DNA from: Candidatus Kaiserbacteria bacterium
GTDB taxonomy: Bacteria; Patescibacteriota; Minisyncoccia; Phycocordibacterales; JABAAK01
DNA length: 64,000 bases
Direction: 5' to 3'
Assembly: GCA_026713605.1 (NCBI GenBank)
Contig: JAPOOC010000010.1
Span: 10,556 to 74,555, forward strand
Position 1 is the stretch's first letter. The number at the start of each line of letters is the position of its first letter. The position numbers and the translations under genes are program-made. Below are positions 13,530 through 60,433 of the stretch, piece after piece. The notes beneath the pieces were generated by a model, which ran no database searches, was not told the DNA's origin, and worked only from the letters and a program-made list of their open reading frames with translations.

Positions 13530-13612
13530 GTGGCGGAATTGGCTGTGCCCAGAAGAGGGCTTGAACCTCCACGAGATTGCTCTCATACGCTCCTGAAGCG
13601 TACGCGTCTACC
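13530..13612 (-). pseudogene. partial tandem duplicate of the tRNA-Leu 3' two-thirds (from the D-loop GGTAGACGCG to the 3' end, plus ~17 nt downstream)
   Basis: 83-bp unit 97% identical to 13656..13738. It lacks the 5' acceptor/D-stem half, so it cannot fold into a complete tRNA. Confidence 0.6.
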
Positions 13613-13671
13613 CGTGCCGGCAATCTCTGATTGACGCTGACTATCAGACGCCACGGTGGCGGAATTGGCTG

Positions 13672-13755
13672 TGCCCAGAAGAGGACTTGAACCTCCACGA
13701 GATTACTCTCATACGCTCCTGAAGCGTACGCGTCTACCAATTCCGCCACCTGGGC
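13672..13755 (-). tRNA. tRNA-Leu (anticodon CAG), long variable arm, no encoded CCA
   Basis: Minus strand GCCCAGGTGGCGGAATTGGTAGACGCG...TTCAGGA...GGTTCAAGTCCTCTTCTGGGCA; strong similarity to canonical bacterial tRNA-Leu. Confidence 0.8.
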
Positions 13756-21175: not shown

Positions 21176-21248
21176 CCACCTGTAGCTCAATTGGTAGAGC
21201 ACTCGTCTTATACACGGGCGGTTCCTGGTTCGAGTCCAGGCGGGTGGA
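21176..21248 (+). tRNA. tRNA-Ile (anticodon TAT/UAU), C1:G72, no encoded CCA
   Basis: Acceptor CCACCTG/CGGGTGG, D-arm GCTCAATTGGTAGAGC, anticodon stem CTCGT/ACGGG with loop CTTATAC, T-arm CCTGGTTCGAGTCCAGG. Confidence 0.6.
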
Positions 21249-21319
21249 CTGAAGAGGTTGATGAGGTCATCTTTTCCGTAAAGGGATATTGTGTTTGTGA
21301 GGCATGCTATACTTTGCAT

Positions 21320-21898
21320 ATGATTACTCGTTATCCCTGTCTTGCAACTTACTTTTTCCTCACCCTGTGCATTGCTTTCAGTTTGTTTGTTGGGCAGGTG
21401 TTTGCATGTGAGGTTTCGTCTCATTATCTTCCACCAGAAGGCGACCTGCAACCCTCTGATGAAGTGCCGAGGGTGCTCCCTCGAGCGCCTTTCGGCGAGG
21501 GCGCACGGACAGAAAATGAGGTTGTTGAAGGGAAGAAGAGGTTTTTCACCTATCGGATTACCTATGATGCGTTTGACAATGTTGTTGCGATGGAGGCGGA
21601 TCTGCCGTTTGGATATACCCTTTCGGAACGGTTTGTATATCATGACAACCAGCACCCGTTTTATCATACGCCCACTGAAGAATGGCGCTGGTTTTCTAAC
21701 GAGCGAGAGTCCAGTGTTTCCTTGGTAGATAAAAATGGGAAGGAGATTGCTTCTGAGCGCAGGGTGTGTGGTACTGACGGTGCATTGATTGAGAAGACAC
21801 ACGGTGGCTCACGAATAGCGGCATATACTATACTTGTTATGCTCTCTGGCATCATTGGCATTGACCCACCTGAACGAAGTGAGGTTGTTGATTCATAG
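21320..21898 (+). CDS. secreted hypothetical protein
   Basis: Start at MITRYPCLATYFFLTLCIAFSLFVGQVFA (signal-peptide-like). The track ORF 21173..21898 overlaps the tRNA. Native GC content. Confidence 0.4.
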   Translation: MITRYPCLATYFFLTLCIAFSLFVGQVFACEVSSHYLPPEGDLQPSDEVPRVLPRAPFGEGARTENEVVEGKKRFFTYRITYDAFDNVVAMEADLPFGYTLSERFVYHDNQHPFYHTPTEEWRWFSNERESSVSLVDKNGKEIASERRVCGTDGALIEKTHGGSRIAAYTILVMLSGIIGIDPPERSEVVDS

Positions 21899-22051
21899 GG
21901 TTGTCGCGAAGGTAACTGCAAGTGGGGGGTGTTCCTGCCAATTGGGTTAAAAAGTTGTGATGGCGAGGGAAAACTCCTGTGATTTGCCTGTATACCTTAT
22001 TTTCAATGTTTTTACTGGTGAATTCCCTATAACCTTGCCAAGTTAAGAAAT

Positions 22052-23251
22052 TTGACAACTAAAGTAAAATTAGTACACTATACTTATATGTATGATAACA
22101 GCACACATAGAGGAAGCGAGGAGCGTCAACAGGGGTGTGAGATATTTTTTCTACAGGTAGGGGAAAATGATTCAGAGAGTAGTCAGAGTGGGGATGCTAT
22201 TGTTCTGACAATGGGCAATCGTTTCAGTAATAATAGGGATGATTATAAAATCATTGTGATTGATGGTGCGTTTACTCATGATGCGCAAACCGTTAAGAAG
22301 CACTTAAATCTTTTGGATGCAAAAAATGAAAATGACAAGTTACAGATTGATTTAATGGTTTCTACACATTCTGATCAGGATCACATAAGTGGTTTGATTA
22401 AGTTGGTGGAAGACGATGATGTTGAGATTAAAAAATTGTGGGTTCATGACTGTAATAAAATTACAGGCAATATTACATGCAGCGTTGATCAGGTAAAAAA
22501 TTTAATTTGGATTGCAGGAAAGAGGGGCATACCTATGGAAGAGCCATTTGCTGGTCTGTCATACAATCCTGATGATATAGATGCTTGTATAGAGGTATTA
22601 GGACCAACAGGAGAATACTATGAGGAATTAATGTGTTCTGTAGATAAGGTATATGTAAAAGGTAAGAGAAAGAACGCTTTTAGTGTTTTAGGAAGAGCTT
22701 GTGACGCATTGCGCAATAGTGTTGGCTCAATGCTTGAGCATGTATTTGATACAGAATTACTGAAAGACCCTGATGAAAATGCAACATCTAATAGTAATAA
22801 TTCTTCAGCAATTTTATTATTAAAATTTTTCAAAAATGATCAAGTGAGTGATCTTGCATTATTCACTGCTGATGCCGGTGTTCCAGCATTGGAGAAGGTT
22901 TTTCCGGCGCTTGAGGAGCATGGTTGGTCTGAATACAGTGTTAAAAGGTTTTTACAAATTCCACACCACGGGAGCAGAAGGAATGTTGGTCCAACACTTT
23001 TAGATGAGTTACTCGGCGAAAAGGAATTTAATTGTAGAAGAGGCTCCTGCTTTGTTTCTGCGCACGAGAAGGATGAGAGCCATCCGAAAGTGCAGGTACT
23101 CAATGCGTTTACAAGAAGAGGTTATAGAGATATTGAAGATATATATCCTGCTAAACGACATCATATGGGTGATACCCCATCAATTAATGGATGGGAGACT
23201 GCTGAGAAGATTGATTTACTGTTAGGAGAGGAGGAGGAAGAACACGATTAA
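22052..23251 (+). CDS. standalone ComEC-C-like metallo-beta-lactamase-fold hydrolase, first gene of the AT-rich island
   Basis: GDAIVLTMGN...YKIIVIDGAF; STHSDQDHISG (TH.D.DHI.G, as in the ComEC MBL domain at 41388..42263); IPHHGSRRN (HHGS motif). Confidence 0.55.
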   Translation: MTTKVKLVHYTYMYDNSTHRGSEERQQGCEIFFLQVGENDSESSQSGDAIVLTMGNRFSNNRDDYKIIVIDGAFTHDAQTVKKHLNLLDAKNENDKLQIDLMVSTHSDQDHISGLIKLVEDDDVEIKKLWVHDCNKITGNITCSVDQVKNLIWIAGKRGIPMEEPFAGLSYNPDDIDACIEVLGPTGEYYEELMCSVDKVYVKGKRKNAFSVLGRACDALRNSVGSMLEHVFDTELLKDPDENATSNSNNSSAILLLKFFKNDQVSDLALFTADAGVPALEKVFPALEEHGWSEYSVKRFLQIPHHGSRRNVGPTLLDELLGEKEFNCRRGSCFVSAHEKDESHPKVQVLNAFTRRGYRDIEDIYPAKRHHMGDTPSINGWETAEKIDLLLGEEEEEHD

Positions 23252-23253
23252 TT

Positions 23254-23754
23254 ATGAAAAGATTAATACAAATAATGACAACTTATAATTTATTAAATTA
23301 TCTATTGCCGGGCATCTTGTTTGTCATTTTTGCAAATCATTTTACCTCGTATTCCTTTTTACAAGAGAATTTGATAATAGGGGGTTTTTTGTACTATTTT
23401 ATAGGTATGGTAATTAGTCGAATAGGGTCGTTATTTATTGAGCCATTCTTAAAAAAAATTCGTTTTTTAAATTTTGCTAATTACAAAGATTTTATTTATG
23501 CTGGCAATAAGGATGAAAAAATAGGAGTTCTTTCTGAACAAAATAATCAATATAGAACCATTGTGGCATTTCTAGTATCAATTGGTTTACTGAAAGTGTG
23601 GGAATTATTTTCTGATTATTTGAACTTAAGCCAATTTGCGGAAGCGGTGATTATTTATGTGGTTCTTTTGATAATATTTTTAGTTTCGTATAGGAAACAA
23701 ACAAATTATATAAGGTCAAGGGTTGAGGCAAACAAAAAAGAGGGCGGGTCATAA
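23254..23754 (+). CDS. small 4-TM membrane protein, hypothetical (island gene)
   Basis: 166 aa with four hydrophobic helices; starts 3 nt after the MBL gene stop; AT-rich. Confidence 0.5.
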   Translation: MKRLIQIMTTYNLLNYLLPGILFVIFANHFTSYSFLQENLIIGGFLYYFIGMVISRIGSLFIEPFLKKIRFLNFANYKDFIYAGNKDEKIGVLSEQNNQYRTIVAFLVSIGLLKVWELFSDYLNLSQFAEAVIIYVVLLIIFLVSYRKQTNYIRSRVEANKKEGGS

Positions 23755-23886
23755 AATAAACATTACAGCCCACCTTGCTAAATTAAGAAAATCCACATAT
23801 TTTGATATAATTCAATATTTTTACCTTATACTATTAGTGTATGTGGTGTGCTATGTGCCGTTTTCTTTCTTCAGGTTTCTTTACTT

Positions 23887-25779
23887 GCTATGGTTGAGAA
23901 AAGTTACAAGATTGGCGAAGTGGCAGAGATGTTGGGGGTGCATGAGGACACCTTGCGAAATTGGGACGCGCATGGGTTGGTGGTGGCAGACAGAGTAGGG
24001 ACGAGGAAAGATAGGAGGTATACAGTGGAACACATAAAGCAGATAAAGGAGAAAGGGCTTGTGTCTGATCTTGCGAGGCGGCAGCCGAGCGGTCGGGATT
24101 ATTCGGATTATTCAAAGGAACAGTTGATTAAGGAGTTGCAAATATTGAAAGAACAGAGAAAGTACGGACTTGTGTGGGAAGATAAGCCGGAAGAGGTTGT
24201 TGAGATGTGTAAGACACAGGCACCCATCTTAAAATCAGTTCCAAAAATGAATGTTGCTGGAAGAAAAGGTGAGCAACGAAATATTATGATAGAGGGAGAT
24301 AACTACCATGCTTTGCAAGTTTTAAACTATACGCACAAAGGAAAGATTGATGTGATATATATTGATCCACCGTATAACACGGGAGCGAAAGATTGGAAAT
24401 ATAACAATGATTATGTTGAGAAAGAAGATGCCTTTCGGCACAGTAAGTGGATTTCAATGCTGTACAAAAGAATGTTATTGGCAAAGTCTTTATTAAAAAG
24501 TGATGGCGTAATGATAGTTACGATTGACGACCACGAATTATTTAGTCTTCTTGGGATTATTGAAGATCTTGATGCTACAACATTGGGTAGAGTTACCGTG
24601 TCAATTAAGCCAGAAGGCAGGCAACAAAGTAGATATGTGATGGAGTCCCATGAATATATTATATTTATGTCTTGGGGTGTACCTAAAATTAGAGGTCTAA
24701 ATATAAATTTCGGCTCAGATTTTACTGAGGAAGATGAAATTTCTAAATTTAAGTGGGAAGGGTTTATGCGTAGGGATGCTGGTCGTGAGGATAGAAGTTC
24801 AAATACTTGGTATCCAATTTATGTAGATCAGCAAGGCAATGTTAGTCTTAAGGAAAAACCAAACACGATTAAAGTGTTGCCTATAAATACAAAAGGCATT
24901 GAACGAGTCTGGCTTTGGTCAGAAGAAAGAGCACAAAAAGATATAAGTGAATTAAAAGCAGTGATCAGAAATAATCGAGCTACTGTTTACTACAAAAGGA
25001 GAGAGCAAGAGCGAGTTAAACCAACCTCAATATGGTTTGGTAGTAAATATAATGCAAATGCATACGGCACAAGACTCTTATCAAGAATCTTGCCGGAGAA
25101 CAATTTCGATTACCCAAAAAGCCTTTATTCTGTGCTGGATGCAATAGATTTATTTTTACCAAAAGATGGGTTGGTATTGGATTTCTTCGCTGGATCAGGA
25201 ACAGCAGGACACGCAGTGATGGAATTAAACAAGGAAGATAGCGGAAGTAGGCGATTTATCCTCTGCACAAATAACGAAAACAACAATGGTAACGGACATG
25301 GTGGGATTGCTGAGAGCGTGTGTCAGCCGAGGATTAAAAAGGTGATGAAGGGATATAAGAAAAATGGGAATGGAGAGAGGGTTGAGGGGCTTGGCGGCAG
25401 TTTGGAATACTTTAAAACAGAGTTTATTGATGTGGAGAATGTGAGTGATGTTCCAGACAAGAAAAGGTTGCGATTTACCCATGAAGCCGGACATGTGGTC
25501 GCTTTGAAAGAAAACGCGTTTACTGAGTTGGAGAAAAATAATTGGTATCAGATATTTACTGATGGATTAGATAAATATGTGGGTCTTTATTTTAGAGAAA
25601 ACATTGAAAAATTAGAGGATTTGGAACAAAAGATTTTAAACAGGGGAGAGGTAAAATTATATATATTTTCACATGGCGGCAGTGATGACTGGAAAAATGA
25701 CTATACAGAGCATGAAAATGTGATAGTTGAAGATATACCAGAGCCGATATTAAAGGTGTATAAAATTTTAAATAGTTAG
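23887..25779 (+). CDS. MerR-type HTH fused to an N6-adenine/N4-cytosine DNA methyltransferase (beta class; Type III Mod-like)
   Basis: YKIGEVAEMLGVHEDTLRNWDAHGLV MerR HTH; IYIDPPYNTG (motif IV) upstream of LDFFAGSGTAGHAV (motif I), the order typical of Type III Mod/beta-class MTases. Confidence 0.8.
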   Translation, partial: AMVEKSYKIGEVAEMLGVHEDTLRNWDAHGLVVADRVGTRKDRRYTVEHIKQIKEKGLVSDLARRQPSGRDYSDYSKEQLIKELQILKEQRKYGLVWEDKPEEVVEMCKTQAPILKSVPKMNVAGRKGEQRNIMIEGDNYHALQVLNYTHKGKIDVIYIDPPYNTGAKDWKYNNDYVEKEDAFRHSKWISMLYKRMLLAKSLLKSDGVMIVTIDDHELFSLLGIIEDLDATTLGRVTVSIKPEGRQQSRYVMESHEYIIFMSWGVPKIRGLNINFGSDFTEEDEISKFKWEGFMRRDAGREDRSSNTWYPIYVDQQGNVSLKEKPNTIKVLPINTKGIERVWLWSEERAQKDISELKAVIRNNRATVYYKRREQERVKPTSIWFGSKYNANAYGTRLLSRILPENNFDYPKSLYSVLDAIDLFLPKDGLVLDFFAGSGTAGHAVMELNKEDSGSRRFILCTNNENNNGNGHGGIAESVCQPRIKKVMKGYKKNGNGERVEGLGGSLEYFKTEFIDVENVSDVPDKKRLRFTHEAGHVVALKENAFTELEKNNWYQIFTDGLDKYVGLYFRENIEKLEDLEQKILNRGEVKLYIFSHGGSDDWKNDYTEHENVIVEDIPEPILKVYKILNS

Positions 25780-25780
25780 T

Positions 25781-26869
25781 ATGAAAAAAATAACATTAAA
25801 ACCATTTCAGATTAATATAATCAAAAGATTGGAAAATTTTTCTTTTCGGAAGTTTGTTGATCTTGATAATTTTTTCAATGTAAAAAATATCGTTTTATTA
25901 TTTGTATTTATCTGGCTTATTGTTGCTTTTTTGTTTATGCATAAAATCGAGATGGAATTATTATCACCTTTGATCAGGATTCTTAGTATTATTGGTTGGG
26001 GAACCATCGGATACTTTGTTATTTGTCATACTGCTGGCTATGGCCTGTATAAGAAAATAATTCCTTGGGGAGAACGAGGAGCGGTAATAAAAATTATTGG
26101 CGTGTGTGTTGGATTATCCATCGGTTGGGTTTTTACATTTTTTGTAAGATGGATGCATGCGCTGCTCTTGAGTGAGGTGCTCGTCATTAGTATTGCTACG
26201 GTATTTGCGATGTTATTTTCTTACCTCGTATTTAGATTTTTCAGATACAGTAATCAAAATATCAAGGGAGGTGTTGCTTACATAGATGGCAATAATTTGC
26301 ATAAGGGGAGTAGGCAATTGGGTTGGGTGTTGGATTATCAAAGATTCAGGCAGTGGTTGAAGGATAAGTATGATATAGAACGGGCAGTAATTTTTATTGG
26401 GTATTTGAAAAAAAATGAGAAATTGTATTCGGATTTGAGAAGTCAAGGTTACGAGCTTTGCTTTAAAGAAGTTTCTTATGGCAGAAGAGGAGAAATCAAG
26501 GGAAATGTAGATTCAGATTTGGTGCAGAAAGTAATGGAAGATTACTCGGAGGAAAAGTTAGGAGAAAATAGTGTTGTTATAGTTTCTGGTGATGGTGATT
26601 ATGCACCGAATATACGATTTTTAAAAAAGAAAGGATTATTTAGAGCGTTGCTTGCTCCATGTAATGAAAGTCAAATGAATAATGGTAAAAGATCTGGAGT
26701 TTCTGTGTTGCTAAAAAAATTAAATATACGAATTGATTACATTGGTAACCATAAAAATGTATTAGAGAAAAAGAAAAGGCGCCCAGCGAAGACGATACAT
26801 CGCAAGGCCCCAATTCATCGTGATAATAAAATTGTATCTAATAATGAGAAAAATGTCAATATTTCATAA
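25781..26869 (+). CDS. membrane-anchored NYN-domain (LabA/PIN-like) predicted ribonuclease
   Basis: About 4 TM helices in the N-terminal 170 aa, then AYIDGNNL...GNVDSDL...VIVSGDGDY NYN motifs. The first 11 aa (MKKITLKPFQIN) are shared with the next gene. Confidence 0.65.
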   Translation: MKKITLKPFQINIIKRLENFSFRKFVDLDNFFNVKNIVLLFVFIWLIVAFLFMHKIEMELLSPLIRILSIIGWGTIGYFVICHTAGYGLYKKIIPWGERGAVIKIIGVCVGLSIGWVFTFFVRWMHALLLSEVLVISIATVFAMLFSYLVFRFFRYSNQNIKGGVAYIDGNNLHKGSRQLGWVLDYQRFRQWLKDKYDIERAVIFIGYLKKNEKLYSDLRSQGYELCFKEVSYGRRGEIKGNVDSDLVQKVMEDYSEEKLGENSVVIVSGDGDYAPNIRFLKKKGLFRALLAPCNESQMNNGKRSGVSVLLKKLNIRIDYIGNHKNVLEKKKRRPAKTIHRKAPIHRDNKIVSNNEKNVNIS

Positions 26870-26880
26870 AGGAGAATAAT

Positions 26881-29112
26881 ATGAAAAAAATAACACTAAA
26901 ACCATTTCAAGTTAATGCGATTGAAGGCCTGAAGAAGGAGGTGTTGCATCGATGGAGGAGAGATACACGGCAGGATATAAAGTTTCAGTCGCCGACAGGA
27001 TCGGGTAAGACGGTGATGATGGCTCAATTTGTGCGTGACTTGGTGAATGCGCCGGAATTATCAAATGCAGATTTTGCCTTTTTATGGGTGAGTATTGGCG
27101 GATCAAGTGATGGGGATCTGGCATATCAGAGCAGGAATAAGTTTGATGAGTACTATGGTGGCGCGTCTGAAGTTGCTGTTACCGGACTGGACAGCTTGAG
27201 TAGAGAGAAAAAAATGGAGCAAAACGAAATACTGTTTTTTAACTGGTCAAAGATTAAAACGAGAAATAAGGATGGCAGGAAACTGAGAAGGGAAAACGAA
27301 CAGGAGATAACGTGGGACGGCATGATACAGAGAACGCACGCAGAAGAGCGAGATATTATCCTCATCATTGACGAGGCGCACAACAGCAGCTCAACACTTC
27401 TTGCTGAGGAAGAGATAAGGTTGATCAATCCAAAGATGGTGATACACATCACCGCAACGCACCGGGATCAAAGTAATATAGATGTGCATGTCACTCCTCA
27501 GGAAGTAGTACAAGCTGGGCTTATAAAAGAGTTAATCAAATCACAAACACAGCAGGATTTTAAGGATAAGCGAGTGAAAGATTTAGACAAACATGTTCTC
27601 AAACTATCTCTCAAAAAGAGAAAAGAGATTGCATCTTTGTATAAAAAAGAAAAAGTGGATGTAAATCCGCTACTTATGATTCAGTTGCCAAATGATGATC
27701 GGGCAAATCAGGAAGAAGAAACAAAAAAAGAATCTGTGCTGCGATGGCTGAAAGAAGAAGGTGTTGATGAAAACACTGTTGCGATATGGCTTGATAAAGA
27801 GAAAACACGATTAGAGAACATAACGATGCATAATAACGGTATCGATATTCTGCTATTCAAGCAGGCACCGGCTACTGGCTGGGATTGTCCAAGGGCACAG
27901 GTATTGTTGATGTATCGTGAAACAAAGGATCCCGTCTTTCAAGTGCAGGTGTTGGGGAGGATTTTGCGCATGCCGGAAGGAAAGCATTACACAAAATCAA
28001 AATTAAACAGTTCGTACCTCTACACCACCTACACAAAAAATGAGATTATTGACAATTACGGTAATTACCAAGGAGAAAATCAATTAGCAATCTTTCGTGC
28101 ATCTATTAAAAAAGCTATTGAGCAAATTAAACTCAAAACATTTGTTTCTCAAAGAACCAGTTACAACGACCTTGGAAAAACATTTCAGTTCACCTTTATC
28201 AAAACTGCCAACAAAGCATTTGATAAAAAGAAATCCTTTCAGTCCTGCTTTACCTTCGGCGAAGAGGTTGAGTTAGATTTGATAGTTGATCAGGATATAC
28301 GAGATTACGATGGCTTTATACAAGCAATTAAAGAGGCGGACAGTTTGGGGCAAAAAATGTCTCGCAATGATATAGAGAAGTTGTATAAGAAATTGTGTAT
28401 TGAGATTTTACATAAACAGGAAGAAGAAACAAAATTTAAAAACATCGCCAGGTCATACGGAAAATTAAAATCTGCTATTAATGTGTGGTTTGAAAAATAT
28501 GTTGGTATTAGAGATAAAAATGAATACTACCCTTGTGTTGTGAATGACCTTAACAGAGGGGCAAACAGCATCCTGCTCCCAGTGATAAATAAGGCATTGG
28601 AACAATATGTTTCTGTAAGAAGTAAGGAGGAGGAGGAGCGAGACAAAAAAAAGGTTGATACCAAGGAAATTCTAATACCCCTAAGTGATTTCTCTTATAC
28701 AAGCAACTATGAAGAAATATCAAGTACCAAATGCGCCATGTCGCCGTGTTATGTAAACAAGAATAATGAAAACGAGAGAAAGTTCATAGAATATCTTGAG
28801 AATAATGCATCTGTTGAGTGGTGGTATAAAAATGGGGAAAACGGATCAGAACATTTCTCTATAAGAAGGGATAGTGGTAATTTATTTTTTCCCGACTGGT
28901 TTATTAAAACAAAAAAAGACATTTGGGTGGTAGACACGAAAGGAGGGTTCACTGCTGAAGGAGAAAGTGCTGTTTCTCGGGCAAAAGCATTAGACATATG
29001 GTTGAAAGAAAACAAAAACTTTAAGGGAGGTCTTGTAAAGGAAGTTTCTGGTCTTTGGAAGATTGCAAAAGATACAAAGTTGGAAAAGTGGGTTGATTGG
29101 AATTTTGAATAA
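26881..29112 (+). CDS. Type III restriction enzyme Res-like DEAH-box helicase with C-terminal PD-(D/E)xK-type nuclease region
   Basis: LKPFQ Q-motif, SPTGSGKT Walker A, IIDEAHN DEAH box; C-terminal FFPDWFIK...VVDTKGG nuclease-like motif. Confidence 0.75.
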   Translation: MKKITLKPFQVNAIEGLKKEVLHRWRRDTRQDIKFQSPTGSGKTVMMAQFVRDLVNAPELSNADFAFLWVSIGGSSDGDLAYQSRNKFDEYYGGASEVAVTGLDSLSREKKMEQNEILFFNWSKIKTRNKDGRKLRRENEQEITWDGMIQRTHAEERDIILIIDEAHNSSSTLLAEEEIRLINPKMVIHITATHRDQSNIDVHVTPQEVVQAGLIKELIKSQTQQDFKDKRVKDLDKHVLKLSLKKRKEIASLYKKEKVDVNPLLMIQLPNDDRANQEEETKKESVLRWLKEEGVDENTVAIWLDKEKTRLENITMHNNGIDILLFKQAPATGWDCPRAQVLLMYRETKDPVFQVQVLGRILRMPEGKHYTKSKLNSSYLYTTYTKNEIIDNYGNYQGENQLAIFRASIKKAIEQIKLKTFVSQRTSYNDLGKTFQFTFIKTANKAFDKKKSFQSCFTFGEEVELDLIVDQDIRDYDGFIQAIKEADSLGQKMSRNDIEKLYKKLCIEILHKQEEETKFKNIARSYGKLKSAINVWFEKYVGIRDKNEYYPCVVNDLNRGANSILLPVINKALEQYVSVRSKEEEERDKKKVDTKEILIPLSDFSYTSNYEEISSTKCAMSPCYVNKNNENERKFIEYLENNASVEWWYKNGENGSEHFSIRRDSGNLFFPDWFIKTKKDIWVVDTKGGFTAEGESAVSRAKALDIWLKENKNFKGGLVKEVSGLWKIAKDTKLEKWVDWNFE

Positions 29113-29223
29113 AAGTTATTTTTCCCATGTGATAATCATGTTCTTGTTCCCTGTCTGGATACCCCTCTTTTTTATAAAATTTATAAAACTGTTAAGTGAG
29201 TAGATGGCGGGAAACATTTTAAA

Positions 29224-29256
29224 AGGGGCGGTCAATGACCGCCCCTTTATTGTTTT
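29224..29256 (+). terminator. rho-independent terminator closing the island operon
   Basis: 9-bp stem GGGGCGGTC/GACCGCCCC, loop AAT, followed by TTTATTGTTTTT. Confidence 0.65.
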
Positions 29257-29367
29257 TATGTATTCTAGTCCGCTCTTGGGAAGTTGTACTTGAAATGAAG
29301 GAGTGTTTTGAAAGTAACTTGCACGATATGTACAATCCTTTGCTTACTAAGTATATACTGTTGGTGT

Positions 29368-30504
29368 ATGCGTTTTTCTCGGTTGTTTTTGCTTCTTGTG
29401 GTGATATTTGGTGTTGTGTTGTATGTGTATTTTCCACTCCATGAATCGGCGGTTGATACTGCCGCTCGTGATGTTTCTGTTGTGACCTCAGATATCGGTT
29501 CGGATGTCGCCGGGTATGAGGTTGTGGCGGACAATTTTGTGATTCCGTGGGACATTGCATTTCTTCCTGATGGTGGCTTGCTCGTAACTGAACGGGGCGG
29601 CGCGCTCATTCGTGTGCGAGAGAATGGTGTTCGGCACCGCATCATGTTTGATGACACATATCATGTTGGGGAGGGAGGGTTGCTCGGTGTTGCGCTGCAC
29701 CCCCTGTTTAAAGAAAATGGATTTGTTTATCTCTACAGCACACAGCATTCCAGTGGTGGCACGGTCAATCGGGTGGAGCGGTTTGTGTTTCGGGATGCGA
29801 ATTCTTCTACTCCAGAGATCACTGACCGAACTGTTATTATTGATGCTATTCCAGGTGCTGTGTATCACGATGGCGGACGAATTGCATTTGGTCCTGATGG
29901 TTATCTTTATATCACTACAGGTGACGCAACAGATCCTGACCTGGCACAGGATAAAACTTCTTTGGCGGGGAAAATTTTGCGGGTAACTGATGATGGTGGT
30001 ATTCCGCCGGACAATCCGTTCGGCACGGCGGTGTATTCCCTTGGACATCGCAATCCACAAGGGATTGCGTGGGATGAGCGTGGTGCGCTTTGGAGTACTG
30101 AGCATGGTCGCTCTGGTGTCCGCTCCGGATTGGATGAGATAAACAAGATTGAACGGGGTGGTAACTATGGTTGGCCGCTCCTGCAGGGAGATGACAAGCG
30201 AGACGGATTTGTGGCGCCGGCATTGCATTCTGGGCAAAATACTTGGGCGCCTGCGAGCGCGGTTTTTGTTGGGAGTACACTTTTCTTCGGTGGCTTGCGA
30301 GGTGAGACATTGTATGCGTATGAGCCGGACACTGGCATACTTCGCTCTTTTTACACCAGCGCCTTTGGTAGGATTCGCACTGTCCGTTACCGATCGCAGG
30401 AAAACGCGCTCTACATAACAACGAGTAATCGTGACGGTCGTGGTACACCACACCTTGGTGATGACAAAATCATCCGCATTCTCGTTGAGGATTTGAGGAT
30501 GTAG
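29368..30504 (+). CDS. PQQ-dependent sugar (glucose/sorbosone) dehydrogenase, beta-propeller, membrane-anchored
   Basis: FVIPWDIAFLPDGGLLVTERGGALIRV, GGLLGVALHP and HDGGRIAFGPDGYLYITTGDA match the soluble GDH/YliI family. Confidence 0.75.
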   Translation: MRFSRLFLLLVVIFGVVLYVYFPLHESAVDTAARDVSVVTSDIGSDVAGYEVVADNFVIPWDIAFLPDGGLLVTERGGALIRVRENGVRHRIMFDDTYHVGEGGLLGVALHPLFKENGFVYLYSTQHSSGGTVNRVERFVFRDANSSTPEITDRTVIIDAIPGAVYHDGGRIAFGPDGYLYITTGDATDPDLAQDKTSLAGKILRVTDDGGIPPDNPFGTAVYSLGHRNPQGIAWDERGALWSTEHGRSGVRSGLDEINKIERGGNYGWPLLQGDDKRDGFVAPALHSGQNTWAPASAVFVGSTLFFGGLRGETLYAYEPDTGILRSFYTSAFGRIRTVRYRSQENALYITTSNRDGRGTPHLGDDKIIRILVEDLRM

Positions 30505-38339: not shown

Positions 38340-38355
38340 TTTGTGTCGGTTTTAG

Positions 38356-38744
38356 TGGAGGTGGCGGGAATTGAGCCCGCGTCCATGTCAACTGTCCTCT
38401 AAAGGTGTTTTACATAGCATCTGCACATGATAGGTTCTGTGCCGACCAATGTCTCTGCTTTTTTTGATGCTCCGGTTATAGCAGGGGATAGAGCCGAAGT
38501 CACTTTTTCTCGCTTTCTTACACCCGTACGGATTAGCGAGAATCATCCGTGGGATGGCTCATACCTTATTTGGATGAGCGAGGCATTTGCGTCGCCTAAG
38601 CGAACGCAGGTGCTGAGCTATTGATAAACTCAGTAAATGCCCGTGCAAATTTGTTTTTGTTTGCAACTTGTGGATGTTTTAGATGATCTCTCATCACTAT
38701 GCACCTATGGGGGACTGTGTTAACTGTCAAGGCCTGACACCCCC
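38356..38744 (-). ncRNA. ssrA: tmRNA (SsrA); proposed tag reading frame 38664..38596 encodes ANKNKFARAFTEFINSSAPAFA*
   Basis: 5' GGGGGTGTCAGGCCTTGACAG... acceptor pairs with 3' ...GCGGGCTCAATTCCCGCCACCTCCA (tRNA-Ala-like T-arm and acceptor). Internal ORF begins with the GCA resume codon and ends ...AFA-TAG. smpB is directly adjacent. Confidence 0.75.
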
Positions 38745-54624: not shown

Positions 54625-56319
54625 TTATGGTATACACCGTATTACTCTGATTTGTATTTTTCTTCGGTAGGTGTCCATTTCAACACACCCCACGACTGCG
54701 CGTAGCGTTTGACCTGGCTCTGCGTGCACCTCTTTATTTTCCTTAGCGAAAAAAGCGATGCCATCTAGATATCCCGTCCCGTCAGTGAGTGTGTACCGCA
54801 CATGCTCTTTCTTTTTTCCAAACATTGATTTTTTGTGTATCGTGCATTGTGGTATGGCAATGCGAATCACCTCGTTTTGTACACCAAATGGCGCAAATTG
54901 CTCATAGAGTTTATAGACATCTGCCACCTCACTGATGGTGCATTCGTTATCTACCACCATCTCATGCGCCGACACCTCTTGCTCCTGCTTGCTTGCTGTT
55001 TGGTTGAGAGCATCTTCAAGAGACACCTCTGCTCCGTGTGCTAGTGTGAACCCTCCCGCCTGTTTGTGTCCCCCTGCCTCAGTGAACACCTCTGGTGTGT
55101 TTTTCATCAGTGAGAATACATTGTGTTCTTTTGACCTGCATGAACCCTTTATAACCGCTTTCTCTTCTGTCCCACCCTGTCCCCACACAAACACTGTTTT
55201 TCTATAGGTTTCTGCAATCTTCTGTGCCACCAACCCCACCAGTGATGGTTTCCACTCGCGATTTCCAAATACCCACACCGCTTTTTCTTTACCCTTGCTT
55301 TCTGCTTGTTTTTGTGCCGCTTTTGTCATTGTCGCGACCGCTGTTTTTCTTTTGTTGTTGAGTTCTGTCAAGGTTCTCGCAAGTTGTGCCGCTTCAGTGG
55401 TGCTACTAGTTGTCAGTAATTTGAACGCAGTTTCTGCTCCCCCCATCCTTGATGCCGCATTTATTCTTGGGATGATCAAAAATGAAAGGTCGTCTTGTGT
55501 GACTTTCTGTTGATCAAGGCGCAGTACATCGCAAAGTGCTTGTATACCAGGTCTCGGGCTTTTTCTCAACACCTGTAACCCGTAATGTGCCAACTGTCTG
55601 TTTATGCCGCGGAGTGGCACCATATCAGATAGTGTTGCCAACCCCACAATATCTAATTGCCATTTTTCCCACCCTATTGGCGGTTTTTGTATATTTTCCC
55701 TCCTTTGTGCTTCTCGTATTATCTCCTGTATGACTATGTAGGTTACTCCCGCGGCGCATGGGTGTGGCTGCTCAACCCCTTCTACTGTCGGATTTATCAT
55801 TGCAAATGCGTTTGGCTCTGTTTCGTCGGCAAGGTGGTGGTCTATGATGATGGTGTGCATCCCTTTCTGCTCCATGTCTGCCACCTCTTCTGGACTCGCT
55901 GTGCCGCAGTCAAGCACACACACCACCGATGCATTGTTGGCGGCCATTTTTTTGATTCCTTTTTTATTGAGACCAAACCCTTCACTGTTTCTGTCTGGCA
56001 CATAGTAGGTGATGCGACGGTGTCCGAGCGCATGTAGTGTCGTATACAGTGCTGCCGCTGCCGGTATGCCATCGCAGTCGTAGTCGCTGAATATACCAAT
56101 CATTTCTTCCTTTTCTACGGCATCAAGTATCCTCCCCACTGCCTTTTTTATATTTTTGTACTGCTGTGTCTCAATCGCAATCCATTCTTTTTTGAAAAAG
56201 GCTTCCGCTTCTTCCTGTGTAGTTATGTTTCGCGCATACAGTAATCGTTGTGTTCGGATATCATATTTTTGTAGTGCGTTCTGTACTTCTTTCGGTGGAT
56301 TTTTGCGAACTGTGTACAT
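54625..56319 (-). CDS. recJ: single-stranded-DNA-specific exonuclease RecJ
   Basis: IGIFSDYDCDGIPAAA (DHH motif I), IIIDHH (motif III), DHHA1 C-terminal region. Confidence 0.8.
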   Translation of the reverse strand: MYTVRKNPPKEVQNALQKYDIRTQRLLYARNITTQEEAEAFFKKEWIAIETQQYKNIKKAVGRILDAVEKEEMIGIFSDYDCDGIPAAAALYTTLHALGHRRITYYVPDRNSEGFGLNKKGIKKMAANNASVVCVLDCGTASPEEVADMEQKGMHTIIIDHHLADETEPNAFAMINPTVEGVEQPHPCAAGVTYIVIQEIIREAQRRENIQKPPIGWEKWQLDIVGLATLSDMVPLRGINRQLAHYGLQVLRKSPRPGIQALCDVLRLDQQKVTQDDLSFLIIPRINAASRMGGAETAFKLLTTSSTTEAAQLARTLTELNNKRKTAVATMTKAAQKQAESKGKEKAVWVFGNREWKPSLVGLVAQKIAETYRKTVFVWGQGGTEEKAVIKGSCRSKEHNVFSLMKNTPEVFTEAGGHKQAGGFTLAHGAEVSLEDALNQTASKQEQEVSAHEMVVDNECTISEVADVYKLYEQFAPFGVQNEVIRIAIPQCTIHKKSMFGKKKEHVRYTLTDGTGYLDGIAFFAKENKEVHAEPGQTLRAVVGCVEMDTYRRKIQIRVIRCIP

Positions 56320-56369
56320 GGCACCATGCTACCACCACTATTCCCGTGCCACTCTTTTGTTATTTTTCT

Positions 56370-56378
56370 TTATCCACA
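56370..56378 (+). promoter_or_regulatory. perfect DnaA box TTATCCACA upstream of dnaA
   Basis: Exact consensus 9-mer, 60 bp upstream of the dnaA start, in an AT-rich spacer. Confidence 0.6.
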
Positions 56379-56438
56379 AAAAACACACTCCTCACACCCT
56401 TGCTTTTTACTACTACAGTAGGGAATAATAAATGATAT

Positions 56439-57803
56439 ATGGAAATTACTCAGGAGGCAGACATTCAAACACTCTGGGATGACGCTTCTAAGGTTGTGAA
56501 AGAATATATATCAGCAAACAGTTTTAACACATGGCTCTCGGGAGTGTACCCACTTAAAATTGATGACGGTGGGAGGACTATTGTTCTTGGTGTGCCGAAC
56601 GAGTTGACCCGAAGTTGGATACAAAAAAACTATCAAGGTATCCTTGCGTCTGAGTTTGTTAAAATTAATCCAAGTATACGCAATGTGAAACTCATTATTT
56701 CGCGCAGAGTTTCAAAAAAACCTCCAAGGTCAGTACCGTCACAAAAAACCGTTCCTCTTGATTTGAAAAGTTTTGATCGCGAAACCAACCTTAACCCTGA
56801 TTTGGTATTTGAGAATTTTATTGTTGCGCCGTACAATCGGTTTGCACACACTGCTGCGCAGGCAATTATGGAAAAGTTTGGCACTTTGTATAATCCGTTT
56901 TATGTGTACGGTCCAACCGGTGTTGGGAAGACCCACCTACTTCAAGCGATTGGCAACAAGATTAAGCGGGTGAACCCGTCAATGAATGTGTTTTACACAA
57001 CAACCGAAGCGTTTATGGAAAACTATATTAACGCTATTAAAAAAGATCGTATCAAGGAGTTTAGAAACACTTACCAGAATTACCAACTCTTTATTATTGA
57101 TGATGTCCATTTCTTGCAGAAAAGTGAATCCACCCTTATTGAGGTGTTTCACTTGTTTAATGCCCTGGTAAACAAAAATGCGCAGATAGTGCTTTCTTCT
57201 GATCAACCACCTGCAGACCTTGAAAAAATGGAGGATAGGATACGAACCCGCCTCAATTCTGGTGTTGTCATAGATATTGAAAAACCGAAGTATGAGGATA
57301 TGCGTATTGTGTGTACTGAAAAAGCAGGTAAAATGGGTATAGATATCACTCAAGATGCGATTGATTATGTTGTTGAGAATATATCGCAGAATATACGGGA
57401 GATTAATGGTGCGCTGAAGAGCATCCATCTGCACATTGTAAACCAAGGAAGCGGGAAAGTTGATATTGTTGATGTTAAAAAATATATCAAGAATCATGTT
57501 CGTGCGAAAACAACCATGTCACATGAGAAAATGATTCAGGTTGTATGTGACTTTTACCAAATAAAGCCCGAGTTGCTGGGAACAAAACTGAGAAAGAAAG
57601 AGGTGGTGCATGCGCGGCAAATTATTATGTATGTCTTTCGAGAGCATTTGAACTTGTCATACTCATTTATTGGCAAGCAGTTTGGTAACCGAGATCACAC
57701 AACCGTTATGCACGCATGCACGAAGATAACAAAAGAGTTGCAGGACAATTCAACCATTCAAAGAGATTTTGAAGTTTTGGTGAAGCGTTTAGATATTGTA
57801 TAG
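56439..57803 (+). CDS. dnaA: chromosomal replication initiator DnaA
   Basis: GPTGVGKTHLLQAIGN Walker A, and C-terminal HTTVMHACTKI DnaA signature. Confidence 0.9.
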   Translation: MEITQEADIQTLWDDASKVVKEYISANSFNTWLSGVYPLKIDDGGRTIVLGVPNELTRSWIQKNYQGILASEFVKINPSIRNVKLIISRRVSKKPPRSVPSQKTVPLDLKSFDRETNLNPDLVFENFIVAPYNRFAHTAAQAIMEKFGTLYNPFYVYGPTGVGKTHLLQAIGNKIKRVNPSMNVFYTTTEAFMENYINAIKKDRIKEFRNTYQNYQLFIIDDVHFLQKSESTLIEVFHLFNALVNKNAQIVLSSDQPPADLEKMEDRIRTRLNSGVVIDIEKPKYEDMRIVCTEKAGKMGIDITQDAIDYVVENISQNIREINGALKSIHLHIVNQGSGKVDIVDVKKYIKNHVRAKTTMSHEKMIQVVCDFYQIKPELLGTKLRKKEVVHARQIIMYVFREHLNLSYSFIGKQFGNRDHTTVMHACTKITKELQDNSTIQRDFEVLVKRLDIV

Positions 57804-58039
57804 CGTAGTGGAAACCGTGTGGATATTGTGGTTATCTTTTCTTTGGTTTTGTGTGTATAACAAGTGTACTGTCGAAATGTTTCCACAGTGGAAATTTTTT
57901 GAGATGTGTTTTTCACAACTTTTTAAAAGTTGTACACACCTTTATACCAATTCATAATTGAAAAAATGTTTTGTATGTCCTGCGCATTTTTTGCTTATAC
58001 ACTTTTGCACATTATTAGTAGTACTAGTATACTTTATAT
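57804..58039. promoter_or_regulatory. putative oriC (dnaA-dnaN intergenic): degenerate DnaA boxes plus AT-rich unwinding region
   Basis: TGTGGATAT (57818..57826) and TGTGGTTAT in tandem, TTCCACAGTGGAAA, TTTTCACAA; strongly AT-rich 57940..58039. Gene-strand polarity switches here. Confidence 0.6.
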
Positions 58040-59149
58040 ATGAAATTAAAAATAAAAACAGATGTATTAAAAAATATAACGAGTACCCTTGCCAAGGTGA
58101 CCGCGAAAGATGGACTCGGGTCTGTGTTCAATGGTGTGCATGTAGAAGTTGCGCAAGAAAAAGTTTTTTTGCAAGCACAGCAGATTGGTTTTGGTGTGCA
58201 GTATGTGTCCGAGGTTGAAGGTGCGGAGGGTGGTTCGATGTTTGTTCCAATACAGGTTCTTGATGGTGTGGTTGGCTCACTTGTTGATACGACCACCACT
58301 GCTGCTTTGCGTGAAAAAAAATTGACCGTCACCACGCATGCCAGCTCTTCTGATGTGTATATTCTTGAAGAAGGGGAGAAGCCGACGATTGGGAAGCCGA
58401 ATGGATCCCCCTTGTTTTCAATACGGCGAGAAGTTTTGGTGCAAGGTTTTAAAGATGTGCAGCATGCTGCCGCTGAGAGTGTTGTTAAGCCGGAAATTGC
58501 CAGTGTGTATATGTACACAAAAGATAACTCTATTTACTTTGTCTCTACCGATGCTTTTCGATTAGCTGAATCTCGTTTTCTTTCTGATGATTCAGTCGAT
58601 ACTGACTTTGAGGTTATCATGCCTATTAAGAATGTTATGAAAGTGCTTCGTATTTTAGAGAGTGTTTCGGATACGATGGTTCACTTGTTTGTACAGGAAG
58701 GGGTGGTGCATTTTCAGACGGACAATGTTTTGATTCAGACAAATAGCGTAAAGGGTTCTTTTCCTGACTATAAGAATATTATGCCGACCGATTTTGATGT
58801 TACTATCACTGCTTTGCGTGGTGATGTTGCAAATTTTCTCAAGAAGGCACGCCTGTTTGCTGACAAGTTGAATAAACTATCGCTGTCTGTTGAGGATGAA
58901 AAAACCATAGCCCTTGAGTTTAGTAATGAGGCCGTTGGTGTTACAAAGAATACCATTCCTGTTGTTATGAAAGGGTCTGTTGATGCACTTCCTTCGTTTA
59001 ATTACAAGTTTGTTACTGATGCGTTGTCAGTTATTACTGATGATCGTGTCGTTCTTAGTGCAGTTAATGATAAAACAAAGCCAATGATGATTCGTGGGGC
59101 AGAGGATACCTCGTTTACTGCTATACTTTCCCCGTTATTGGATAAGTGA
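58040..59149 (+). CDS. dnaN: DNA polymerase III beta sliding clamp
   Basis: 369 aa directly after dnaA and oriC; three-domain clamp-like pattern, N-terminal [12 protein letters not shown]... Confidence 0.8.
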
Positions 59150-59184
59150 TTGTATTCCTTGGTGCTATACGGTATACTTGTGCT

Positions 59185-59319
59185 ATGAAGATAAATAGGA
59201 AAAAAAGGGTTAGGAAGCACGGTTTTTTAGCGCGAAGCAGTACGCCATCAGGGCGGCGAGTGCTTGCGCGTCGGCGAGCAAAAGGGAGGAAGCGAGTTGC
59301 TGTTTCGCAATCTCGTTAA
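59185..59319 (+). CDS. rpmH: ribosomal protein L34 (not in the ORF track)
   Basis: Translation [44 protein letters not shown] matches the bL34 consensus (MKRTFQP..KRKR.HGFRAR..T..GR.VL.RRR.KGRKRL); directly upstream of rnpA. Confidence 0.8.
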
Positions 59320-59335
59320 GTACGCAAATTGTCTG

Positions 59336-59650
59336 ATGAAACTATCATTACGCCGTGAGGAGGTGCAACATATTCTCAAACATGGGAAGCGGTATACCTG
59401 CGATGGTTTTGTTGTCTGTGTGTTGCGATCTGATGCTAGTTCTGGGAGGTTCTCAATACTCATTCCTAAAAAAGTAGCGAAAGGTGCTGTTGCAAGGAAT
59501 AGGGTGCGACGAGTGTTGCGTGATGTGATCTCATGTGTCGGCTATACTGGCAGCGATTTTGTGGTGTTGCATAATAAAAAGCAAGATTCCGAAGAGGTTT
59601 CTAAGGAACACTTGAGAACACTTCTGACAACCATTGCACATACAGTGTGA
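59336..59650 (+). CDS. rnpA: ribonuclease P protein component
   Basis: KHGKRY...FSILIPKKVAKGAVARNRVRRVLRDVI (RNR motif); position after rpmH. Confidence 0.75.
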   Translation: MKLSLRREEVQHILKHGKRYTCDGFVVCVLRSDASSGRFSILIPKKVAKGAVARNRVRRVLRDVISCVGYTGSDFVVLHNKKQDSEEVSKEHLRTLLTTIAHTV

Positions 59651-59662
59651 TGCTGGTGTGGT

Positions 59663-60430
59663 ATGCTGTATATGTTTTTTATGAACATCCTCTTTATCGT
59701 TTTTTATCAACCCATAGCAAACTTGCTGTTTTTTTTGATGGATGTGGTGCGTACTGACAGTATTGTTGTTGGTGTTCTTTTGCTCGTTGTTGTGGTGAAA
59801 CTCATCTTACTACCGAGTTCAATAAAAAATTCAAAAATACAGCAGAAATTGAGTGAAATATCGGGTGACCTGAAGGATATAAAAGAGAACATTAAGGATA
59901 AAAAACAGCAAATGGAAAAAACGCTTGAGGTGTATAAGAGGGTTGGAGTGAATCCGTTTAGCCCAATCGTTTTTTTGTTGCTACAGATTCCTTTTTTTAT
60001 CAGTATATTTTTTGTTACGAAAGATTTGGGTACTATGGGGAATGATTTTTTTGCTACCAAAAATGTGCTGTATGATTTTGTTGCACAACCGGCGCATATT
60101 GATTTTACCCTCAGTTTTGGCTCTTTTTTCCTTGATACTATGCAGAGTGGTGCAATCATTATTGCGGTATTGATAGGTGTTTCGCAATTTGTACTGATGC
60201 ACCAGACGCAGAAGAAGGCCGTTACTACACAGAAAAATATGAAGGCATTGGTGTATGTTCTCCCTATTTTTATTGCTTTTCTGTCTCTCAGTATTGCGGC
60301 GACTATCGGAGTGTATTGGCTGTTCAATAATCTCATATCAATACTGCAGGAGGTTTTTATTAATCGATTCAGCAACGGTGGTGATGTTGCCCCCTCACTC
60401 ACTCCAACTGATCAGGGTGGTACACTGTGA
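59663..60430 (+). CDS. yidC: membrane protein insertase YidC (short, Oxa1-like form)
   Basis: 5 TM helices; conserved NPFSPIVFLLLQIPFFISIF motif; synteny rnpA-yidC. Confidence 0.7.
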   Translation: MLYMFFMNILFIVFYQPIANLLFFLMDVVRTDSIVVGVLLLVVVVKLILLPSSIKNSKIQQKLSEISGDLKDIKENIKDKKQQMEKTLEVYKRVGVNPFSPIVFLLLQIPFFISIFFVTKDLGTMGNDFFATKNVLYDFVAQPAHIDFTLSFGSFFLDTMQSGAIIIAVLIGVSQFVLMHQTQKKAVTTQKNMKALVYVLPIFIAFLSLSIAATIGVYWLFNNLISILQEVFINRFSNGGDVAPSLTPTDQGGTL

Positions 60431-60433
60431 TCG

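Follow-up and report, generated by a model that had tools for sequence, protein, structure and literature searches.

A transmembrane NYN gene inserted at the mod-res junction of a Type III-like restriction-modification locus in a Candidatus Kaiserbacteria bacterium

Genes of the AT-rich block

The stretch of DNA analysed here, 64,000 nucleotides (nt) of contig JAPOOC010000010.1 from a Candidatus Kaiserbacteria bacterium and referred to below as the window, contains an AT-rich block of five same-strand open reading frames (ORFs), g1 to g5, at positions 22052-23251, 23254-23754, 23848-25779, 25781-26869 and 26881-29112. With the start of g3 taken at 23890, the gaps between consecutive genes are 2, 135, 1 and 11 nt. 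The last three genes form a Type III-like restriction-modification (R-M) operon in which g4, encoding a transmembrane (TM) protein with an NYN nuclease domain, was inserted by a duplicative event between the methyltransferase gene mod (g3) and the helicase-nuclease gene res (g5). The first two genes match a catalogued candidate defence pair, PDC-M48. A preliminary description of this locus had correctly recognized the domains of the five proteins (a metallo-beta-lactamase (MBL) fold hydrolase, a 4-TM protein, a Mod with a MerR-type helix-turn-helix (HTH), a TM-NYN protein and a Res-like protein) and the defence character of the block; its further proposal, that the five genes constitute a single undescribed system, is taken up in the interpretation below.

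The GC content of the block is 0.367, compared with a mean of 0.460 (standard deviation 0.016, minimum 0.422) over the 64 kb as sampled in 428 non-overlapping windows of 7 kb. The individual genes of the block range from 0.29 to 0.39 and the flanking genes from 0.41 to 0.51, with the same trend in the GC content of third codon positions (GC3). Within res, a 1-kb stretch (27001-28000) has a GC content of 0.42, the remainder of the block being close to 0.35. A tRNA-Ile gene with anticodon TAT (21176-21249, plus strand, ARAGORN) marks the upstream edge of a variable defence hotspot and is separated from the block by one ORF of native composition (21320-21898, GC 0.48), hereafter hyp_21320, whose 192-amino acid (aa) product has a signal-peptide-like N-terminus and looks secreted. 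An intrinsic-terminator-like hairpin with a T-run (29222-29258, plus strand; 12-bp stem at 29222-29248 with 8 G-C pairs) closes the operon. Beyond it, the downstream flank begins with a native-GC gene for a glucose/sorbosone dehydrogenase (29308-30504, GSDH 2e-73). The five co-directional low-GC genes, the upstream tRNA-Ile with one native-GC gene in between and the closing terminator had all been described beforehand and are confirmed.

The g3 protein joins an N-terminal MerR-type HTH to a Type III beta-class N6-adenine DNA methyltransferase (Mod; 23890-25779, plus strand, in a frame that is open from 23848). It matched the Pfam families N6_N4_Mtase (6e-26) and, at its N-terminus, MerR_1 (4e-10), as well as the PADLOC profile MTase_III (1e-69). 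Matches in the PDB included Mbo45V (3e-45), a Mod chain (9e-28) and EcoP15I Mod (4zcf_A, 1.5e-20). In the translation, IDPPY stands upstream of FFAGSGT, that is, the DPPY of motif IV precedes the FxGxG of motif I. Judged by its motif order, its profile matches and its homology to characterised Mods, the placement of g3 among the Type III Mods is solid at the sequence level. Since the Mods of relatives open with M..K.EKYYKIGEV at a position equivalent to ATG 23890, the real start of g3 is probably this codon.

The g5 protein (26881-29112, plus strand, 743 aa) is a Res-like superfamily 2 (SF2) DEAH helicase (Pfam ResIII, 7e-17) whose C-terminal part carries a PD-DxK nuclease motif. In an alignment with 20 homologues (44-83% identity), the segments PTGSGKT, DEAH (D164-E-x-H167), QxxGRxxR (Q356, G359, R360 and R363) and P671-D672...D685-T686-K687 are invariant, and these provide the Walker A, DEAH, motif VI and C-terminal PD-(D/E)xK elements of a Type III Res. 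The PADLOC profile REase_III matched g5 at 1e-15 and was matched by 20/20 of the aligned homologues, the best at 5e-23. When an AlphaFold2 model of g5 (pLDDT 74.8) was used in a Foldseek search, EcoP15I Res (4zcf_C) was matched with E = 6e-8 and a query TM-score (TMq) of 0.34 over 633 columns, the second-longest alignment in the top ten. More than 2600 Res homologues were found, and a Mod adjoins in nearly all of the loci sampled. The identification of g5 as a Res rests on architecture, motifs, weak profile matches and an obligatory linkage to Mod, and the pair is named 'Type III-like' throughout. The Type III-like Mod/Res core, previously recognized from these same motifs, is thereby borne out.

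The first two genes form a pair of their own. The g1 product (22052-23251, plus strand; probable start ATG 22088) matched the PADLOC profile PDC-M48B (1.1e-45), and g2 (23254-23754, plus strand), a small protein with hydrophobic segments that make it a 4-TM protein, matched PDC-M48A (2.4e-60) over residues 1-162 of the 164-position profile. Both profiles are therefore matched by adjacent same-strand genes 2 nt apart. PDC-M48 corresponds to cassette CAS_00157 and belongs to a set of 145 'phage defence candidates' that were recovered from inside BREX, DISARM or Type I R-M loci (Payne et al. 2024, bioRxiv 10.1101/2024.01.29.577857); no mention of it beyond that study was found in the literature searched. 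It also occurs as an independent cassette in RefSeq. A defence role for the pair is the prediction attached to a catalogued candidate.

Further PADLOC matches of g1 were to other defence MBL proteins, namely LmuA (5e-22), RTasMBL (1.5e-16) and Avs1a (3.5e-11). The NCBIfam scores of 52.5 bits for Avs1a (cut-off 420) and 44.6 bits for 6A-MBL (cut-off 220) are far below the cut-offs, so g1 shares the MBL effector fold with these systems and is not a member of them. Assignments as AVAST Avs1a, 6A-MBL or Lamassu LmuA were rejected on those scores and for the lack of a STAND NTPase or LmuB partner. The Pfam Lactamase_B match (0.006) is below threshold, and the MBL fold rests on the PADLOC and NCBIfam defence MBL models. 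The best PDB sequence matches were the MBL domains of ComEC, all non-significant (E = 0.07-0.8); of the earlier label 'ComEC-C-like', the MBL fold thus stands and the likeness to ComEC is weakly supported.

The 135-nt spacer between g2 and g3 contains a promoter-like site (23783-23811, plus strand), TTAAGA-17-TGATATAAT (TATAAT) with an upstream TG and 10/12 consensus matches; it is a match to the consensus alone and not evidence of function. In the relatives discussed below, the gene upstream of mod stops 2-3 nt before mod.

The TM-NYN protein

The g4 gene (25781-26869, plus strand) is a chimeric ORF of approximately 12-16 Res-derived codons, a 4-TM domain and an NYN (LabA-like) nuclease domain (Pfam NYN, 3e-13). 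The NYN family (PF01936) was matched with 50.8 bits against a gathering cut-off of 24.2, and four hydrophobic segments lie N-terminal to the domain. The active site is intact, with D169, N172, D244 and D271-G-D273 invariant across 16 diverse family members. Both the score and the retained acidic residues place g4 within the NYN family. From the Lys/Arg-rich N-terminus and second loop, the positive-inside rule predicts an N-in/C-in topology in which the NYN domain would face the cytoplasm. Of 7 contigs that carry g4, the 4 listed, from four samples, have the ORF intact and identical.

An exhaustive HMMER search identified 1091 relatives of g4, almost all of them NYN-only. The sole 4-TM + NYN relative found, P0125 (309 aa; 9e-51, 39% identity), is free-standing, and the TM region is conserved between the two proteins, including the N-terminal FRKFVDLDNFFNVKN / LKKFIEFDKYFNKKN segment. 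An AIPR (abortive infection) gene immediately precedes the gene for P0125, with housekeeping genes around the two (L091 6538-8930); although a single case, this is a second, independent defence association for the TM-NYN architecture.

Elsewhere, an NYN-only homologue of g4 (45% identical) is found together with a 246-aa ORF of unknown type between atpA and atpG (L002 5261-6675), and the presence of an NYN gene inside an ATP-synthase operon, an unexpected setting for a nuclease, suggests that the clade is mobile. Six further members (P0132, P0161, P0224, P0236, P0263 and P0262) seem, by eye, to be fused to N-terminal domains resembling P-loop kinase, CYTH, HD, NUDIX and MazG. With the domains assigned in this way, the modular fusions of the clade appear to follow a pattern typical of conflict-system effectors. 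The possibility that the clade is phage-borne was rejected, as 2.9 million viral contigs yielded 8 NYN-only relatives and none with a TM domain. The similarity of g4's 4-TM half to the 4-TM PDC-M48A protein, which would have made g4 a fused PDC-M48-like unit, was likewise rejected at the sensitivity of BLASTP (best E = 4.9).

PrrC and RloC consist of an N-terminal ABC-type ATPase and a C-terminal anticodon-nuclease domain and are embedded in Type I hsd loci. An assignment of g4 to these anticodon nucleases was rejected, since it has no ATPase domain and belongs to a Type III host; what it shares with them is position and concept only.

Insertion of g4 at the 5' end of res

The g4 and g5 proteins share their opening peptide, MKKITLKPFQ(I/V)N. 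In the DNA, this corresponds to a 40-nt direct repeat, identical at 36/40 positions, whose copies (25777-25816 and 26877-26916, both on the plus strand) are spaced by exactly 1100 nt. The alignment score of the repeat, 60, was never reached in approximately 2000 random windows or in 1000 shuffles. The left copy of this 'res 5' box' comprises the mod stop TAG, a T, an ATG and 11 further codons that are identical or nearly so to the start of res, and the right copy is the true res 5' end. Between them lies an inserted segment of 1060 nt (25817-26876, plus strand), in which a 12-nt leader is followed by the TM-NYN coding sequence and by an AGGAG ribosome-binding site that now serves res; this new site lies within TAAAGGAGAATAATATG upstream of res. 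The repeat that flanks the 1.1-kb insertion reconstructs a canonical TAG-T-ATG mod-res junction, and g4 itself starts 1 nt past the mod stop in the same TAG-T-ATG arrangement.

The insertion of g4 between mod and res is a duplicative event. Being bracketed by the res-5' repeat, it has left g4 with 12 Res-derived residues and translationally coupled to mod, while res was regenerated intact. From its residue 3 onward, P0125 aligns to g4 residues 19-333, which indicates that the native TM-NYN gene began near g4 codon 17, at which a TTG persists, and lacked the Res-derived N-terminus. The inserted segment encodes no recombinase. That a membrane-NYN gene had been inserted between mod and res was part of the preliminary description, and the 40-nt repeat confirms it.

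The same locus in four close relatives

Four loci from close relatives (L007 to L010; Res 78-84% identical) all carry an HTH-Mod, a further gene or genes and a Res in this order. Upstream of the island, L008 and L010 have the UDG, DCD and tRNA-Ile(TAT) genes found in the window, the tRNA genes lying directly upstream of the islands (L008 5080-5153; L010 2387-2460), and downstream of it L007 and L009 have the MerT-like, RND, FtsX and ABC genes, again as in the window. Protein identities between the window and the relatives are 64-72% for UDG, 67% for DCD, 73-82% for the MerT-like protein, 78-83% for Res and 54-60% for Mod. The islands of the relatives are also lower in GC than their own flanks. 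Because Mod and Res occupy the same position in all four, the R-M core is a long-standing resident of a conserved hotspot and not a private island. The expectation that the block would vary in presence between related genomes is therefore only partly borne out: the Mod/Res core is constant in 4/4 relatives, and the accessory genes differ.

The slot between mod and res holds the TM-NYN gene in the window, two ORFs of 193 and 124 aa in L007, one of 313 aa in L008 and 310 aa in L010, and one of 239 aa in L009. These proteins are mutually unrelated, except for those of L008 and L010, and the slot proteins of L007 to L010 have no Pfam or PADLOC matches. A second variable slot lies upstream of mod. 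It is occupied by PDC-M48 in the window and in L010 (g1 63% and g2 64% identical), by PD-T7-4 in L008 (2e-66), by an AriA/OLD-like ATPase in L007 (2e-24) and by a PDC-S32-like gene in L009 (4e-6). The order in L010 is PDC-M48B, PDC-M48A, Mod, slot gene, Res, with gaps of 2-5 nt. The hotspot is a multi-system defence island, the content of which turns over between genomes.

Additional genes were seen at the hotspot in the relatives (L009 988-6371; L010 2624-4233 and 13024-14973), namely RloB with an AAA_15 ATPase, SocA_Panacea antitoxin-like genes, T5orf172, DUF5677 and Fic. Both hyp_21320 and the GSDH gene are missing from the locus in 4/4 relatives, so that non-defence genes turn over here too. 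In L007 (1851-3798), Mod is split into two ORFs of 259 and 385 aa beside an intact Res; the split may reflect a frameshift, a decayed mod gene (pseudogene) or an error of assembly.

The mod-res junction across the wider family

A survey of the Res family drew on reference genomes from many phyla (80 loci, mostly of the Candidate Phyla Radiation, CPR) and on 11 metagenome loci found by means of the res-5' box. The junction was empty, with mod and res abutting or overlapping, at 57 loci with a non-HTH Mod and held a gene-sized insert at 2, whereas it was filled at 12/17 loci with an HTH-Mod and empty at the other 5, although the loci behind these counts are not phylogenetically independent. Expressed as distances, the mod-res gap is at most 12 nt at 62/64 non-HTH or undetermined loci and at 5/17 HTH loci, one gene-free gap of 136 nt being counted as empty. 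The family thus has the mod gene immediately upstream of res, as in Type III operons, and in the window this junction is split by the 1.1-kb insertion. At the empty HTH-Mod sites the res ATG lies 2 nt past the mod stop, and at the filled sites the cargo ATG takes exactly that position.

The cargo at other HTH-Mod loci includes an HNH protein (1e-12), DUF3800 at three loci (2e-15), a second, soluble NYN protein that is independent of g4 (7e-12), a HEPN_Cthe2314-like protein (2e-4, a weak match below threshold) and a 155-aa zinc-ribbon protein; the slot NYN of L098 matches HEC-09 at just 0.0047. The two filled non-HTH loci contain PDC-S46 (L034, 1e-251) and a 390-aa protein of unknown type (L069). 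That one junction takes up nine distinct types of cargo nevertheless speaks for a true hot slot. Since the HTH-Mod and the polymorphic slot recur in many loci, and since embedding as such is published (Payne et al. 2024), the architecture that was earlier called non-canonical is not peculiar to this genome.

The 40-nt res-5' duplication was considered as a general signature of the slot and rejected, as it is significant in the window alone. Among the slots of the relatives, L008 was suggestive (0 of approximately 2000 random windows, 0.7% of shuffles) and its homologue L010 was not, and no significant duplication was found at L007, L009, L034 or L069. In a clade of approximately 61% identity, just 4-7 nt (ATGA or ATTATGA) are common to both junctions.

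Other features of the window

The window contains 9 tRNA genes, plus a tmRNA gene at 38355-38744. Two tandem tRNA-Leu(CAG) genes stand beside a tRNA-Arg(TCG) gene at 13547-13755. Most bacteria decode the AUA codon with a lysidine-modified tRNA of anticodon CAT, and a tRNA-Ile with a TAT anticodon, such as the one upstream of the block, is an unusual arrangement.

A second low-GC dip at 57-58 kb (GC 0.368) was considered as another island and rejected, since it corresponds to the dnaA-dnaN region. The interval 54625-60886 carries recJ (minus strand), dnaA (56439-57803), dnaN (58040-59149), yidC and tsaE. Together, the AT-rich dip and a local sign change in GC skew at 54-57 kb look like a replication-origin region.

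Interpretation of the locus

The locus is probably a conserved hotspot for defence genes where a Type III-like R-M system carries embedded accessory effectors, the modules being separable from one another. The scaffold would be a divergent Type III-like system made up of the HTH-Mod and an SF2 DEAH translocase Res with a PD-DxK nuclease. Following the Type III paradigm, Mod would methylate host sites and the Mod-Res complex, having communicated along the DNA at the expense of ATP, would cut incoming DNA that is unmodified, with the HTH of Mod probably autoregulating the operon. PDC-M48, upstream, would be an independent candidate pair. A pre-existing 4-TM + NYN gene entered the first codons of res by the duplicative event that left the 40-nt direct repeat behind. 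Within the HTH-Mod subfamily, the mod-res junction serves as a polymorphic cargo slot, either empty or holding unrelated small genes, several of them nucleases. By analogy with PrrC and EcoprrI, the TM-NYN protein may be an accessory second-line effector, an inner-membrane-anchored and cytoplasm-facing RNase that is co-expressed with the R-M system. The anatomy of the locus, its homologies, the signature of the insertion, the polymorphism of the slot and the conserved position are observed; restriction by Mod-Res, RNase activity of g4, a role of the locus in defence and a functional coupling of the NYN protein to the R-M system are predictions.

Several observations weigh against this reading. 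By sequence, g5 matched none of the solved Res proteins significantly, whether searched as a single protein or as a 20-sequence profile, and in structure it resembles EcoP15I Res no more closely than it does generic SF2 helicases. All five genes, PDC-M48 included, are present and tightly packed in L010, so that co-transcription of PDC-M48 with the R-M genes, or functional coupling between them, is possible. The closest NYN-only relatives of g4 occur in non-defence contexts (in an ATP-synthase operon and beside an rve integrase), which a selfish or mobile gene would also explain. The 40-nt duplication is clear in this genome only, and the mechanism of insertion may therefore not be general. The association of filled slots with HTH-Mods may partly reflect the shared ancestry of the loci counted. 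Finally, HEC-09, the only embedded candidate with an NYN domain to have been assayed, did not protect against the phages used (Payne et al. 2024, 10.1101/2024.01.29.577857).

That the five genes are one integrated and undescribed composite system, in which the MBL, 4-TM and TM-NYN proteins are obligate effector or sensor subunits of Mod/Res, was the view taken in the preliminary description and is quite improbable. The genes are co-directional and for the most part tightly spaced, g4 is translationally coupled to mod, and L010 keeps the complete order with its short gaps; yet genes 1-2 are a catalogued pair that stands as an independent cassette in RefSeq and is missing from 88/90 other Res-family loci examined, with PD-T7-4, an AriA-like ATPase or a PDC-S32-like gene in its place in L007 to L009. 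In the window itself, the 135-nt spacer with its promoter-like site separates the pair from mod, and the gene in the middle slot is lineage-specific or absent while Mod and Res are intact regardless. A PADLOC comparison, which had been proposed as a check, returned defence profiles (MTase_III, REase_III and a generic NYN) and identified g1-g2 as PDC-M48, so that the block is not wholly undescribed.

It is unlikely, although less so, that the TM-NYN gene and the other slot genes are selfish passengers, either free-standing nucleases of an intron-less homing type or addiction-type toxins, that take advantage of a permissive, well-expressed junction spread by horizontal transfer and confer no immune benefit. 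Their presence or absence at a precise site between two conserved genes, an insertion that is duplicative and neatly restores the host gene, the occurrence of HNH, a classic homing-endonuclease family, among the cargo, the NYN-only relatives located within an ATP-synthase operon or next to an rve integrase, and the few NYN relatives on viral contigs would all fit such passengers. Against them stands the diversity of the slot, as it takes at least nine types of cargo that are unrelated to one another and are unlikely all to home to the same site, and NYN and HEPN are RNase folds rather than DNA-cleaving homing enzymes. No recombinase is encoded in the cassette, recognised defence genes (PDC-S46, PD-T7-4 and the AriA-like ATPase) are found among the cargo and neighbours, and most embedded genes are not mobility genes (Payne et al. 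2024, 10.1101/2024.01.29.577857). The least credible explanation, and a highly improbable one, is a recently acquired island integrated at tRNA-Ile with an NYN ORF that is incidental or decaying and functionless. It would account for the GC and GC3 of the block, which fall below those of the flanks, for the nearby tRNA gene and for the absence of hyp_21320 and GSDH from the relatives at this locus. A tRNA-integrated genomic island was nevertheless rejected: no integrase occurs among the block ORFs or domain matches, no second, att-like copy of the tRNA-Ile 3' end was found in the window with up to 3 mismatches allowed, and the Mod/Res core is kept at the same locus in 4/4 relatives across approximately 65-80% housekeeping protein identity. 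Nor does g4 resemble a decaying gene, given its intact catalytic residues, a TM region conserved with P0125 and an ORF that is unbroken and the same in each of the contigs listed.

Within the favoured reading of separable modules at a conserved hotspot, a more specific and tentative proposal may be made, which is considered possible and rather less than probable. In the HTH-Mod branch of the family, the junction may be a dedicated cargo slot, translationally coupled to mod, that swaps diverse nuclease effectors (TM-NYN, NYN, HEPN-like, HNH, DUF3800, PDC-S46 and unknowns), these being held in check or licensed by Mod-Res or by the HTH of Mod in the way that PrrC is by EcoprrI, and the 40-nt res-5' box would then be the footprint of an exchange. 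If the effectors are guarded by Mod-Res in this manner, the strategy in which an R-M system guards a suicide RNase would extend to CPR bacteria and to R-M systems of Type III.

The Type III-like mod-res junction, a single and precisely defined site, repeatedly captures small nuclease genes. Systematic use of embedding has so far been limited to Type I R-M, Hma, BREX and DISARM, the only systems mined in the published survey (Payne et al. 2024, bioRxiv 10.1101/2024.01.29.577857), and has not extended to Type III. Together with its relatives, the locus supplies new candidate effectors, among them the 4-TM + NYN protein and several families without known domains. The empty and filled alleles provide a natural series for asking if the surrounding R-M system controls the effectors embedded in it, and the 40-nt duplication provides a concrete handle on how a cassette enters. 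The locus also gives a first look at how small CPR genomes arrange immunity around one conserved hotspot.

Comparison with known systems

Like EcoP15I and EcoP1I, the window system is a two-gene mod-res operon with mod first, a beta-class N6-adenine Mod and a Res that combines an SF2 DEAH helicase with PD-(D/E)xK, and here too Res is conserved and Mod more variable. It differs in having a shorter Res (743 aa) that is undetected by sequence against EcoP15I Res, a Mod with an N-terminal MerR-type HTH and a foreign gene that splits the mod-res junction. The g1-g2 pair agrees with PDC-M48 in that the genes are adjacent and on the same strand and match both profiles, g2 over its full length; however, it stands beside a Type III R-M system in a CPR bacterium and is not embedded in BREX, DISARM or Type I.

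With respect to HEC-09, g4 is likewise an NYN-fold nuclease with conserved catalytic aspartates inside a defence operon of the methylase/helicase type. It has no HEC-09 profile match (the generic PADLOC NYN was matched at 2.7e-6), and its N-terminus is a 4-TM domain in place of the HTH-like domain of HEC-09. The literature searched held nothing specific on TM-NYN defence proteins or on genes between mod and res.

The closest conceptual parallels are PrrC and the principle of guilt by embedding. As in those cases, an R-M operon of several genes contains an unrelated nuclease gene that is oriented as its neighbours are, the cargo differs among relatives and includes a catalogued candidate (PDC-S46 in L034), and a predicted RNase is carried by an R-M system as PrrC is. 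The differences are that the host here is Type III, that the slot is confined to one exact junction, where res starts, and that g4 is a 4-TM + NYN protein and not an ABC-ATPase anticodon nuclease. A Type III-like R-M system beside a catalogued candidate system in a defence hotspot is ordinary and already known. What is new in comparison with these systems is the precise duplicative embedding of a rare 4-TM + NYN gene at the mod-res junction, and the use of that junction as a polymorphic cargo slot across the HTH-Mod subfamily.

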